From a virus (Duplodnaviria; Heunggongvirae; Uroviricota; Caudoviricetes): a stretch of 47,284 nt of DNA. Position numbers: made by a program. Shown piece after piece: positions 30,001-33,000 of the stretch. Positions within the stretch are counted from its first letter, which is position 1, and each line of letters starts with the position of its first letter. The stretch is taken from the IMG/VR virus record IMGVR_UViG_2718218305_000010; one strand, 5' to 3'.

Positions 30001-33000
30001 TGCTTATCTGTCGATTCCCCAGCACGCCAGCGCGCTCTCCTGGTCACGACGGGATACCTGACCGTAACAGTTATTTGAGCGAATACGGCAGTCCCTGCCA
30101 CCGTCCTTAATCCACCAGCGAATAGCTTCGCAGGCACCTTTTCGATCTCCTGCATTAATCCGTCTGTAAAACGTCGACGGGAAACACTTACCGGGGCCAA
30201 TGTTGTACGGACAGAATGACGCAATCCCCGCTTTCTGGGGTTCGGTCAGTGGCACTCTGATGTTTTTCTCCACCCATGCCAGCGCCTTATCACGCTCAAT
30301 GGCGTTAACCCCGGTCGCATTTTTCCTTCGACAGCTTCATGCCAGGAATAACAGGCTTACCATCCACCCGGGTGGCTCCACGGCAGATGGTCCAGATACC
30401 CGCACCATCACGGTATGCTGTGGTGTGGTTACCTTCCTTTTCATCCAGAAACTGGTCGAGGATTTCAGGCGCAGACGCCCCTGCACCAATCAGCGCCAGA
30501 ACGGCAGCCGACAGGCCGTATCTGATTTTTGCGTTCATGGATATTTATCAGGGTTTATCGATTTCAAATCCCTGGATATGTTAAGTCTTCAGGCCAGCGG
30601 TGGAGTCTTCAGAGAACCCATAATTATTCCCGGTAGTTTTCCTCTGTAGGTTATCAACACATCCTGCGCCTCTAAAATTACGGGACGCTTTTCCGGTAAC
30701 GGACCATCCCCTTCACATAACCCGGCAGCAACATCCATGAAAAACTGCTTCGCCTGCTTTTTCGCCTCAGCTTCGTAAAACTCCAGCGTGGCACCTTCAG
30801 TACGGTCAAGACTAATCGCCACATCTGGCAACAACAGTGACGGATACCCACCAATTTCCAGTGCCACAGTAACAGTAATCTTATCCGGGTAATTATTTAT
30901 CCCTTTAACAACCAGTTCGTATTTTTTCTTCATCGCTTTACTCTCCCCGCGCCGCCTTACGACGGTCCTCTCTGATTTTGAAATACAGGTTAGTCAGATA
31001 CGTCAGCAGGCCAAACAGCAGACTCCCCAGCACACCTATCGCCACCCACTGGGACGGAGAGACTTTGTCCAGCAGCTGCAGTAACCAGTATCCCGTCCCC
31101 ACCGCTGACGTGGTGTATGACACACCCGTTGTGATTTTTTCCATCTGGTACATACCCCGTCTCCCGCAATCCGGAAGCTCACAACAACAGGAGGGGCATC
31201 AGCTCACACCGACAGCCCCTGCGTATGGTTACATCATCATTTCGCCGCCAGGCTGAGGCTCACTGCTACCGTCAGGCTGAGACACAACGCCATCTGAAAC
31301 AGCACTGTCACCCGCGCCGTCTTCAGGCTCAGGAGCAGCCGGTCCCCCCAGCAGCTCATCCAGAATGGCATCCACTTCAGCATCAAGACGCGCCTCAAGA
31401 TTCTGGCGGAGTTGCTGTTTCAGTGCGCTTCTGACTTCTTCAGAGCGCAGGACGTCCTTCACTGCTTCAGCAGTGACCAGAGATTTTATTTCTGACATGG
31501 GATTTTCTCGTTGAAAGGTGTTGTTAAGAAAGTTGCTACGAAATGAGAGGCTCTTCGGGTTTTGTTCCGGCTGACTGGCTGGCGCTGATTTTTTCCGCCG
31601 CCGCGGCATCAATCTTTTTGCGTATATAGTTCCGGATAACCTTATACCCGCCACTTACCAGATATAACGTGCACACCACCGTGCAGAAATACAATAAAAT
31701 AAGCTGTACAAATCTCATTATCCCTCCCGGTTATTGATATGGTGTTGACATCGTTAATACCTGTTGGTTAAAAAAGTGTCCTGCATGTTTTGCTTTGGAT
31801 ATAACGACATTTGCCGCCGGTTCTGGCTCCTTGTTTTCCCTGCCCCGGCGGCCTTTTTTTCCTGCTTACGGGTTATTCACTTCCACTGTTATACTTTCAA
31901 TCAGCACCGGATATGTCGCACCGCTAGTGATATCGGTCACGCGCAATTTGTCTGCCGTAAACGTGCCGACCGGTGACTGTGACAGCATGAACGGCGTCCC
32001 GTCCTTACCATCAATGACCGGCGTCACCTCAATACTGTTGTTACCGGCAAAACGGAAGCCCAGCGTATGCCATTCGTTATCAAATGCGCCGAATGACCCC
32101 AGCTTCGTGTTCTGACCAGCATTTCCCTTGTGGTACATCACATTAAGGTCTGTGGCATCGCTCTGTACGTAAAACGACGCCAGCAGGTTATGACCGGCAT
32201 TACCTTCCAGTGTGACGCCCTGAGGCAGTGAAGAAACCGGCCAGTACAGCGCCAGTGCGTACTGATTAGCTGTCAGTGTGCCATCAACTTTAAAACGACA
32301 ACTGATAAGCCCGCCCTTCTCCAGCAGGTCTGCGCCATTACCGGCATCATGCTGCATAAACCACGAGGAACTTCCTGTCTGTTTGGTCCACCTCAGCGCC
32401 TTACCTCCTGCAGCACCTGCATCATCAACTACCAATGCACGCCCTCCTTCAGCTCCCCATCCCTGCGGATTCAGTAAACCACCTGACTCTGTTGCACGGT
32501 AATAAAGCAGCGTTGTCACTGATTTCCCGTCCGTTGACGGTGTTGATGGTGTGTCCGGTGACGGCTTCTCATCCGGCGGCATCACAACCTGTTCCCCACC
32601 CACCAGTTCAGCCGTCCGTCCTGCATGGAGAAGAATCGCTGAGGCAAGACGGTCAGAAATAATCCCCCTGCGTGCCCATGAGCTGAAATGGCTCGCACGG
32701 TCTGCTGACGTCCAGTTTGCCGACGTCCGGGAGGCCGCACCGTAATATCCTGATGCCGGAATATCCGGGTCTTCTTCCGGTTTGTTCGTCGGGACATTTG
32801 CTCCGTTCTCATCGGTCATGAACGGCACAAAGTGAATATTCTTTTCCGTTTTGTTTTTGTAACTGCCGTACACCGTCTGGTAAGTGGATTCGCTCTTCTG
32901 CTTCCAGAAATAAGTTGTGTCTCCACATATCCAGGGAACACCGTCAGCAGAACCACCAGCGCACTGTCCCACCATATCTGCAAGGTCCGTACGATATTGT

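Follow-up and report, generated by a model that had tools for sequence, protein, structure and literature searches.

The open reading frame (ORF) at positions 30589–30933, minus strand, of the window (the whole stretch of 47,284 nucleotides of viral DNA analysed here) is a real and already catalogued Escherichia coli prophage gene of the YdfR/DUF1327 family. The frame of 114 codons from ATG to TGA (stop TGA at 30589–30591) was found exactly where the original prediction had placed it, and it lies, as had also been claimed, between a holin gene (PF04971) upstream and a lysozyme gene (PF00959) downstream. Its product is 100% identical to the RefSeq protein WP_000731240.1 (“YdfR family protein,” annotated in E. 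coli strain 9000) and matches the Pfam profile PF07041 (DUF1327) over profile positions 1–92 of 93 with E 1.8e-46 and a score of 156.8 bits, the cut-off being 25; the PHROG match is 406, the category of which is unknown function. The element that hosts the ORF is a lambdoid E. coli O157:H7 prophage.

The homology check proposed with the original prediction was run and the Pfam and RefSeq matches to DUF1327/YdfR held, so that the description of the ORF as one with no recognised motif does not stand, though the family label carries no function. The family is not a well-characterised one unrelated to lysis, since it is named but not characterised. In the literature DUF1327 was mentioned in a single paper and only in passing, the term “YdfR family” was not found, and functional data were found in PMC13232886 only. 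The exact protein in RefSeq, the long-standing Pfam entry, and the holin-ydfR-endolysin order in E. coli K-12 were all known already.

Domain architecture of the ydfR product

The folded and selected part of the protein is its first ~75 residues only. This N-terminal domain (residues 1–74; 30712–30933, minus strand) is the conserved family core with a β-β-β-α arrangement, for which the AF2 model of residues 1–76 gives a pLDDT of 89.4 and a pTM of 0.78, with strands at residues 5–14, 18–27, and 38–43 and a helix at residues 50–73. In the same region dN/dS is 0.20–0.24 with saturated dS, and all of the ~20 near-invariant residues found in family alignments of 43 and 35 members are present in the window protein (Y5, E6, L7, V9, K10, G11, K18, V21, I40, R44, E46, G47, A48, L50, E51, F52, Y53, E54, A55, and A57), including the near-invariant motif DRxEGAxLEFYEAxA. 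Some phages carry the N-domain as a stand-alone form of 71–72 aa. The N-domain occurs as two deeply diverged alleles with a hypervariable β2-β3 loop, its GC content is 44.6% (44.6–46.7% for the gene) versus 54–55% in the flanking holin and endolysin genes, and its charge is slightly acidic (D+E 12 versus K+R 9). For the complete protein the acidity assigned to it in the original prediction is marginal only (pI 5.46, D+E 15 versus K+R 14), while its soluble appearance was confirmed by a maximal Kyte-Doolittle mean over 19 residues of 1.18, compared with 1.83 for the holin, and by an N-terminus with no signal-peptide-like hydrophobic core.

The C-terminal tail (residues 75–114; 30592–30711, minus strand) is modelled with low confidence (pLDDT below 50 at residues 81–114 of the full-length model), is weakly constrained (dN/dS 0.65–0.71), and is replaced in relatives by sequences unrelated to it, with at least four distinct C-terminal continuations and family lengths of 72, 103, 104, 114, 176, 183, and 206 aa. 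The ~40 residues of the tail are a poorly constrained recombination patchwork.

According to these data there is next to no chance that the ORF is a chance frame in an intergenic gap and not a gene. Such a reading could appeal to the classical GenBank record of H-19B, in which the 399-nt gap is left unannotated, and to the presence in the window of 95 ORFs that are 100 aa or longer, many of them spurious; however, it is refuted by the PF07041 match, the dN/dS values, and the confident AF2 model, and the start and Shine-Dalgarno sequence are conserved, while the K-12 homologue gives a stable protein when expressed (PMC13232886).

A relative of known function was found neither by fold nor by sequence. 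In Foldseek searches of PDB nothing reached E ≤0.001 with either the full-length or the N-domain model (all E >0.1), and the full-length model also found nothing at E ≤0.001 in BFVD, where the best match (E 0.0026) and the others were uncharacterised proteins only. The top PDB matches of the N-domain were Mgm101 chains (E 0.13–0.17, TMq 0.48–0.49, 57–58 columns, rmsd 3.1 Å), below any significance threshold; the matched region is the β-β-β-α nucleic-acid-binding core of this Rad52 family protein, and the resemblance (E 0.13, TMq 0.49) is weakly consistent with a nucleic-acid role. A dsRBD fold (α-β-β-β-α) was rejected: its matches to the full-length model were noise (E 0.4–0.5, TMq ≤0.28, TMt ≤0.38), and they vanished with the cleaner N-domain model, being absent from its top 50 matches. 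A sequence profile search of PDB gave no match even at E 10, the NCBIfam search gave none, and with E values allowed up to 0.1 no PADLOC model matched the window protein, a 183-aa form, or K-12 YdfR.

The lysis cassette and the distribution of ydfR

Upstream of ydfR lies the gene of a 71-aa S21-type class II holin of the pinholin family (30938–31153, minus strand; PF04971 E 1e-32; PHROG holin), with an MYQM dual-start N-terminus and ~94% amino-acid identity to the S protein of 933W. The translation-initiation junction (30934–30946, minus strand) consists of GGAGAG at 30941–30946, which is at the same time the holin's last two sense codons, the holin TAA at 30938–30940, and a 4-nt spacer at 30934–30937, followed by the ydfR ATG. 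The same distance of 4 nt between the pinholin stop and the ydfR ATG is found in ~85 of 89 related loci, that is, in all those with a placeable holin end, and in three further annotated phages (mEp460, Evi, and PhiR42_1); across nine diverse loci the spacer length is fixed and its bases are variable. Holin-YdfR “fusion” proteins (P0010, P0070, and others) were treated as mutations or assembly errors and not as Rosetta-stone evidence: the P0010 junction is garbled, and because of the 4-nt gap a fusion needs a frameshift.

The tight coupling to both neighbours that was originally proposed is thus correct upstream, at 4 nt from the holin stop, but not downstream, where the endolysin ATG follows after 50 untranslated nucleotides (30539–30588, minus strand) with no Shine-Dalgarno sequence. 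The last 13 nt of this spacer (CTGATAAATATCC) are conserved in other cassette variants, its RNA folding is not significant (z-score 0.22), and the ydfR-endolysin junction is variable among related loci, with gaps from −4 to +404 nt. A consensus scan of 29800–31900 gave no sigma-70-type promoter on the minus strand, and minus-strand terminator-like sites in this interval are found only inside ORFs, none of them convincing. Given the coupled start and no sigma-70-type promoter of its own, the ydfR product should be produced along with the lysis proteins, all of them from the Q-dependent late transcript.

The endolysin is a SAR-type phage lysozyme (30004–30538, minus strand; intact form 177 aa) whose gene is broken by an extra base in the C-run at 30309–30312 (plus strand) into ORFs of 77 and 89 aa, both of which match PF00959; aligned with the intact strain 9000 gene, it has one extra G, and the extra base was found in 0 of 5,426 complete E. 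coli genomes. Because of this frameshift the cassette in the window is defective. An Ant-type antirepressor gene (29164–29733, minus strand; PF10547 P22_AR_N E 1.4e-45; PHROG 524) stands between the endolysin and spanin genes, the latter being the Rz i-spanin (28543–29010, minus strand; PF03245 E 1.5e-39) and the 68-aa Rz1 o-spanin ORF embedded in it (28584–28790, minus strand) with a lipobox-like LVVSAC. No stx gene is present between Q and the esterase gene in the window.

The ydfR family is carried by 58% of complete E. coli genomes, in up to 8 copies per genome, and is confined to Escherichia/Shigella. Two metagenome bins labelled Veillonella and Bacillota also carry the gene; they are regarded as mis-binned E. 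coli contigs and not as a wider host range, with 100% and 89% identity to K-12 EssQ for the two holins and 99% and 84% identity to K-12 YdfR for the two YdfR proteins. The giant repetitive proteins P0141 and P0161 were rejected as compositional matches (14–23 repeats with 1–7 bits each on T/V-rich β-strand repeats). Among 436 phage records with an S21-type holin ydfR is found in 101, leaving ~77% without it, and it is present in 41 of 47 Stx1a, 15 of 17 Stx2c, and 2 of 124 Stx2a phage records.

The counterpart in K-12 is YdfR of the cryptic Qin prophage (b1555, P76160), a member of the same family PF07041 in the same slot essQ-ydfR-rrrQ. The Qin order, with an S21-type holin, a 4-nt gap, ydfR, a 177-aa SAR-type lysozyme, and spanins, is common with the window, and K-12 YdfR shares the β-β-β-α domain, 47% identical over residues 1–74 with no gap, followed by a nonconserved tail. 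However, the K-12 protein is of the other N-domain allelic type, differing in the β2-β3 loop and the helix surface, its C-terminal tail is unrelated, its length is 103 aa instead of 114, and the stop of ydfR and the start of rrrQ overlap in Qin (ATGA), where the window has the 50-nt spacer. A protein 98% identical to that of the window is encoded at the identical position by ORF47 of the inducible Stx1 phage BP-4795 and in the unannotated S-R gap of H-19B; both are functional, inducible phages with stx1 and an intact endolysin, whereas the window has no stx and a frameshifted endolysin.

Phage 933W (S-R-ant-Rz/Rz1) has the holin family, the endolysin (95.5% DNA identity), ant, and the spanins as in the window, and the gene order with ant is the same in 933W and BP-4795; in 933W, however, R starts 4 nt past the S stop and ydfR is absent. 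The same holin family with the direct holin-endolysin order and no ydfR is found in DLP12 (essD-rrrD-rzpD). In both 933W and DLP12 the endolysin gene fills the slot right behind the holin, which makes them natural “minus” versions, and from their lack of the gene it follows that ydfR is an optional insert and not a core lysis gene; holin-endolysin lysis as such does not need it. The position of the gene after an S21-type holin and before the endolysin is that of the family in lambdoid Escherichia phages and prophages. Of the features of a moron it shows the deviating base composition and the presence/absence polymorphism but not an own promoter and terminator, as its start is coupled to the holin stop.

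Possible roles of YdfR

For ydfR, a predicted late gene of this family and an optional, Escherichia-specific element in the lysis cassette of lambdoid phages, it is quite possible, though at somewhat less than even probability, that the N-domain of the product acts via RNase E/RNA. Association with the catalytic half of RNase E and with RNA was reported in 2026 for K-12 YdfR only (PMC13232886). A two-hybrid screen recovered residues 1–72 of K-12 YdfR on three occasions, a signal with Rne 1–597 was obtained for full-length YdfR, and both Rne 1–598-FLAG and DNase-resistant nucleic acid were obtained together with Strep-YdfR, the former by co-elution and the latter by co-purification (PMC13232886). 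YdfR overproduction in K-12 changed few transcripts and left growth unaffected, and almost no ydfR reads were found in uninduced K-12 (PMC13232886). The window protein is 47% identical to K-12 YdfR over exactly the RNase E-interacting segment.

The ydfR gene should be translated from the GGAGAG Shine-Dalgarno sequence within the pinholin's last codons, at an ATG 4 nt past the holin stop, and the working part of the product is a soluble cytoplasmic β-β-β-α domain of ~75 residues. According to the RNase E/RNA reading this domain, as suggested by the K-12 paralogue, may associate with RNA, with the N-terminal catalytic half of the host's RNase E, or with both. From such an association the most likely job would be to adjust how late transcripts of host or phage are processed or decay while the lysis genes are being expressed, and lysis timing or yield would be affected indirectly, if at all. 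In cis the insert would take the holin-coupled start site that is used by the endolysin gene in 933W, and the endolysin start would come to lie 50 nt past the ydfR stop codon with no Shine-Dalgarno sequence; with the start displaced in this way, endolysin translation should be lowered or should depend on ydfR translation.

The T4 Srd, phiKZ Dip, and T7 gp0.7 proteins are phage modulators of the host RNA degradosome that target RNase E, and in the case of Srd the part bound is the N-terminal half, the same half that was reported for K-12 YdfR. Their sizes and apparently their folds are unrelated to YdfR, and their genes belong to virulent phages and to the early or middle class, unlike ydfR, which is a late gene and belongs to temperate lambdoid phages. 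Several points argue against the RNase E reading: the K-12 data concern the other N-domain allelic type at 47% identity, the slightly acidic N-domain is atypical of an RNA binder, and the overproduction that changed few transcripts had no growth effect (PMC13232886). The contact could also be bridged by RNA, because the YdfR data come from two-hybrid assays and from co-purification out of lysates. In addition, no structural match is significant and the cassette studied here is defective, its endolysin being frameshifted.

The one piece of evidence for YdfR as a lysis regulator or cargo, as originally proposed, is the position of its gene in the lysis cassette, welded to that of the pinholin; YdfR may modulate lysis timing. 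A specific form of this idea, which is judged unlikely, is that YdfR acts as a cytoplasmic lysis-timing regulator on the pinholin, either as an antiholin or as a pro-holin, in the way T4 RIII acts on holin T. Binding of the soluble domain to the short, highly charged cytoplasmic C-terminal tail of the holin, or alternatively to the holin's N-terminus before TMD1 exits, would shift the triggering time. The fact that ydfR is invariably linked to an S21-type holin gene (at 4 nt in ~85 of 89 loci and, by eye, in nine diverse loci) fits this idea, as do the finding of the family only beside this holin type and the co-translation of holin and YdfR that would be expected from one message; common descent, however, also predicts a tight linkage, because the 4-nt gap leaves no room for recombination. 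The MYQM dual start of the window holin has no lysine in its extension, a feature that, judging by S21, might weaken its built-in antiholin, but 933W with the same MYQM holin lyses in the absence of ydfR. T4 RIII, a small soluble cytoplasmic phage protein, serves as a working analogy only, in that YdfR could in principle act on the holin as well; unlike ydfR, RIII is not encoded beside its holin, and kinship was rejected (hhalign probability 0.3%, 11 aligned columns). Membrane antiholins and regulators (lambda S107, S21-71, P1 LydB, and Mu releasin) were rejected too: YdfR has no transmembrane or SAR segment, which sets it apart from membrane antiholins like S107, S21-71, and LydB and means that it cannot be one of this kind. 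In the supplementary lists of a CPRG envelope-leakiness screen the Keio ydfR mutant was scored (PMC3879167), which would fit the loss of a lysis inhibitor, but read-through into rrrQ from the resistance cassette may account for it. The overproduction in K-12 that gave no growth phenotype (PMC13232886) also speaks against a timing regulator, although the holin was not expressed there.

Two further readings are considered less likely still, each to the same degree. YdfR may have no lytic role of its own and may be a hitch-hiking insert or moron remnant, which would persist through its weld to the holin and have its main effect in cis, by spacing R away from the holin-coupled start and so setting the S:R translation ratio. 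The GC content below that of the flanking genes, the optional presence, the patchwork tail with dN/dS of ~0.7, the loss of the Shine-Dalgarno-coupled R start in cassettes with ydfR, and the downstream gaps of −4 to +404 nt are consistent with such an insert; on the other hand, the N-domain is under clear purifying selection (dN/dS ~0.2) over a divergence at which synonymous sites are saturated, has ~20 near-invariant residues, and in some phages persists by itself as a gene of 72 aa; conservation of a fold would not be expected of a pure spacer. YdfR may otherwise be a host-directed accessory apart from RNase E and lysis, with late or low prophage expression, serving in superinfection exclusion, in anti-defence, or as a nucleic-acid-annealing or -binding helper. 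Small, fast-evolving phage proteins of one genus often are anti-host or anti-defence factors, and the restriction of the family to Escherichia/Shigella, the two diverged N-domain alleles with the hypervariable β2-β3 loop, and the weak Rad52-type β-β-β-α resemblance agree with this, but there is no PADLOC match and no own promoter, the fold match is not significant, and hardly any ydfR reads are found in uninduced K-12 (PMC13232886).

Relevance to lysis and Shiga toxin release

The sequence feature is ordinary as such, and lysis cassettes can do without ydfR; the gene is part of the cassette by which the release of phage particles and of Shiga toxin is controlled. The functional unit is now sharper, being a 75-residue β-β-β-α domain coupled to the pinholin stop, and clean natural plus/minus comparators are at hand in BP-4795 or H-19B versus 933W. 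The comparators and the domain definition, combined with the RNase E interactions reported in 2026 (PMC13232886), make the question of function directly testable. As a long shot, the YdfR N-domain may act late, linked to the pinholin, by recruiting RNase E to the late S-R-Rz (and stx-proximal) transcript or blocking it there, and so set lysis timing and toxin release. If this were true, the gene, near-exclusive in Stx1a/Stx2c phages and near-absent in Stx2a phages, would contribute to their differing toxin release.

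Identity and surroundings of the ORF

The ORF consists of 114 codons on the minus strand (ATG at 30933, TGA at 30589-30591) and, as the original prediction stated, lies between an upstream S21-type class II holin gene of 71 aa (30938-31153, minus; PF04971, E 1e-32) and a downstream phage lysozyme (endolysin) gene (30004-30538, minus). Then an Ant-type antirepressor gene (29164-29733, minus) and Rz/Rz1 (28543-29010, minus) follow, and further upstream of the holin are a DUF826 gene, a DUF1378 gene and a 645-aa NanS-p-like esterase gene (31866-33803, minus). The proposed absence of a recognised motif does not hold, since PF07041 (DUF1327) was matched with a score of 156.8 bits, the cut-off being 25; the ORF also matched PHROG 406 (category "unknown function"), and its product is 100% identical to WP_000731240.1. 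The surrounding 1.9 kb is 99.9% identical to prophages in E. coli O157:H7 and its relatives, where DUF1378, DUF826, class II holin, YdfR family protein and lysozyme are annotated. The ORF is real and belongs to a family already known; public annotation contains both the identical protein and this order of genes. Its description as acidic is barely justified (pI 5.46; 15 D+E versus 14 K+R), while soluble-looking is apt, neither a transmembrane segment nor a signal peptide being present in the window protein, which by its sequence should stay in the cytoplasm.

The sole difference within these 1.9 kb is one extra homopolymer base at 30309-30312 (plus strand), which gives GGGG for GGG on the coding strand of the SAR-type endolysin gene and splits the 177-aa endolysin into ORFs of 77 and 89 aa. 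The base is absent from all 5,426 complete E. coli genomes, and so represents a sequencing error or else a private, lysis-defective mutation.

Elsewhere in the window the Rfam ALIL pseudoknot (13581-13697, plus; 121.5 bits), which serves IS3-family elements as a frameshift signal, spans overlapping plus-strand ORFs 13300-13626 and 13623-14513; an insertion sequence therefore lies inside the minus-strand structural gene region. Further matches at Rfam gathering score are sok antitoxin RNA (37734-37908, minus; 114 bits), sRNA STnc100 (33944-34110, minus; 102 bits) and sar antisense RNA (10397-10463, plus; 67 bits); tRNA genes are absent from the entire window. Within 31866-35703 (minus), no stx operon is located between the Q antiterminator gene (34882-35703) and the NanS-p-like esterase gene; in the closest genome this interval contains a DUF3927 gene and a TerB-family pseudogene.

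Conserved position and optional presence

The window and 88 related loci drawn from genome and viral collections make 89 loci; in about 85 of them the ydfR-family gene has its ATG exactly 4 nt past the holin stop, and in the few remaining ones the holin end was not placeable. This spacer is fixed in length and variable in bases, and the Shine-Dalgarno sequence is GGA GAG, the final sense codons of the holin. The ydfR-endolysin junction is variable: ydfR may overlap the endolysin start by 4 nt or end 42-404 nt before it. The tight coupling proposed for both neighbours holds on the holin side, but not on the endolysin side, where in the window the ATG follows 50 nt past the stop without a Shine-Dalgarno sequence. 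The same gene order occurs in the K-12 Qin prophage (essQ-ydfR-rrrQ-rzpQ), the inducible Stx1 phage BP-4795 (ORF47), H-19B, where the gene falls unannotated in the 399-nt gap between the holin (S) and endolysin (R) genes, and mEp460, Evi and PhiR42_1.

The 13 nt preceding the endolysin ATG (30539-30551, minus; CTGATAAATATCC in the window, TTATAAATATCT in related locus L011) are kept in the window, L007, L011 and L094 despite unrelated sequence further upstream, and in all four they contain no Shine-Dalgarno sequence. The holin begins with MYQMEK, a dual start (its MYQM variant is shared by 933W) without the lysine carried by the S21 antiholin form and by the K-12 EssQ start (MKSMDK). Judging from S21, the antiholin capacity of the lysine-free longer product is in doubt.

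In phage 933W the holin is about 94% the same as that of the window, MYQM start included, and the endolysin gene is 95.5% identical; R begins 4 nt past the S stop, exactly where ydfR starts in the window. DLP12 (essD-rrrD-rzpD) also lacks the insert. A YdfR relative is encoded in 101 of 436 phage records carrying an S21-type holin; when holin-bearing records were grouped by name, it was present in 41/47 Stx1a and 15/17 Stx2c phages versus 2/124 Stx2a phages. The GC content is 46.7% for the ORF and 44.6% for its N-domain (residues ~1-75), compared with 54-55% for holin and endolysin. Because of this absence from 933W and DLP12, patchy occurrence and lower GC, the gene is an inserted accessory gene.

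The family is small and narrow: it accounts for 282 of the 90%-identity clusters in a set of 5.8 billion proteins, and for 56 of the 50%-identity representatives in a set of 1.84 billion. A search of 185,579 species, represented by one genome each, yielded no more than 8 loci, which lie in E. coli, E. ruysiae, E. albertii, Shigella and two metagenome bins; in E. coli 3,158 of 5,426 complete genomes possess a copy, with a maximum of 8 per genome. The bins (L009 and L011), labelled Veillonella parvula and Bacillota, contain essQ-ydfR-rrrQ-like sequence with 84-100% identity to E. coli K-12, and this most likely represents mis-binned E. coli DNA.

Domain structure

Alignments revealed a conserved N-terminal segment of ~75 residues with ~20 near-invariant positions, including the motif DRxEGAxLEFYEAxA. 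The segment has two allelic types (MKKKYELVV... in the window, MTQNYELIV... in K-12) that have diverged deeply. Beyond residue 75 at least four unrelated continuations occur, family members being 72, 103, 104, 114, 176, 183 or 206 aa long, and stand-alone N-domain forms of 71-72 aa exist, for example in phage Evi. AlphaFold2 modelled residues 1-76 as three antiparallel strands and a long helix (pLDDT 89.4, pTM 0.78), whereas residues 81-114 remained below pLDDT 50. Between the allelic types the N-domain dN/dS is 0.20-0.24 with saturated dS, while the tail (residues 75-114) shows 0.65-0.71 at dS ~0.25. Since the N-domain is conserved, confidently modelled and under purifying selection, and the tail is not, the N-domain is the functional unit; the tail has the look of sequence patched together by recombination. 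In the relatives outside the window P0159, P0108, P0113 and P0118, further modules were observed: the tail module PEKRPVILEAQ...GKLPG..GSLKTPP also stands behind a different, coiled-coil-like N-terminus in P0159, and many members possess an extra C-terminal module of ~65 aa (...EKDDIESxIEKLE...RRDEQFAAFYDYC...), which shows that modules are shuffled within the S-R interval.

The PDB sequence search with the window protein gave no matches up to E 10, Foldseek against PDB and BFVD none with E ≤0.001, and NCBIfam and PADLOC searches none. The top PDB structural matches of the N-domain were Mgm101 chains with a Rad52-type beta-beta-beta-alpha core (E 0.13, TMq 0.49), a weak, model-based resemblance that may serve as a lead and is not a finding. 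Weak dsRBD matches of the full-length model disappeared with the N-domain model, and comparison with T4 RIII gave no relationship.

Possible roles of the YdfR family

Functional data on the family come from one paper on K-12 YdfR (PMC13232886; RNA Biol 2026). In this study a bacterial two-hybrid screen baited with RNase G returned residues 1-72 three times, a segment 47% identical to the window protein, and full-length YdfR gave a signal with residues 1-597 of RNase E. From lysates, rather than with purified protein or under nuclease control, Rne(1-598)-FLAG co-eluted with Strep-YdfR, and the nucleic acid co-purifying with Strep-YdfR was DNase-resistant. Growth was not slowed by overproduction, which altered few transcripts, and uninduced cells showed next to no ydfR expression. 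In other work the Keio ydfR mutant was among the listed positives of an envelope screen with CPRG (PMC3879167 supplement), a phenotype that could stem from a genuine function or from transcription reading through out of the resistance cassette into rrrQ. By homology to K-12 YdfR, the ydfR-family product may, tentatively, associate with RNA and/or the catalytic half of RNase E and would thereby tune how RNA is processed or degraded in late infection.

The gene belongs to the late genes and is coupled to the pinholin; it encodes a soluble beta-beta-beta-alpha domain under selection, and holin-endolysin lysis does not need it. A cis effect on the R start is also likely, as the insert occupies the holin-coupled start used by R in 933W and leaves R behind a 50-nt spacer lacking a Shine-Dalgarno sequence. 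A cytoplasmic pinholin regulator, close to the original suggestion of a lysis regulator, is rather unlikely. That the insert hitch-hikes, with cis effects only, is improbable. Some other host-directed accessory role has a similarly low probability. A chance ORF is practically out of the question, being refuted by the PF07041 match, the dN/dS values indicating purifying selection and the confident AlphaFold2 fold.

The function of the gene is of modest interest, which gains from its distribution in Stx1a and Stx2c versus Stx2a phages and from the natural plus/minus cassettes that render it testable.
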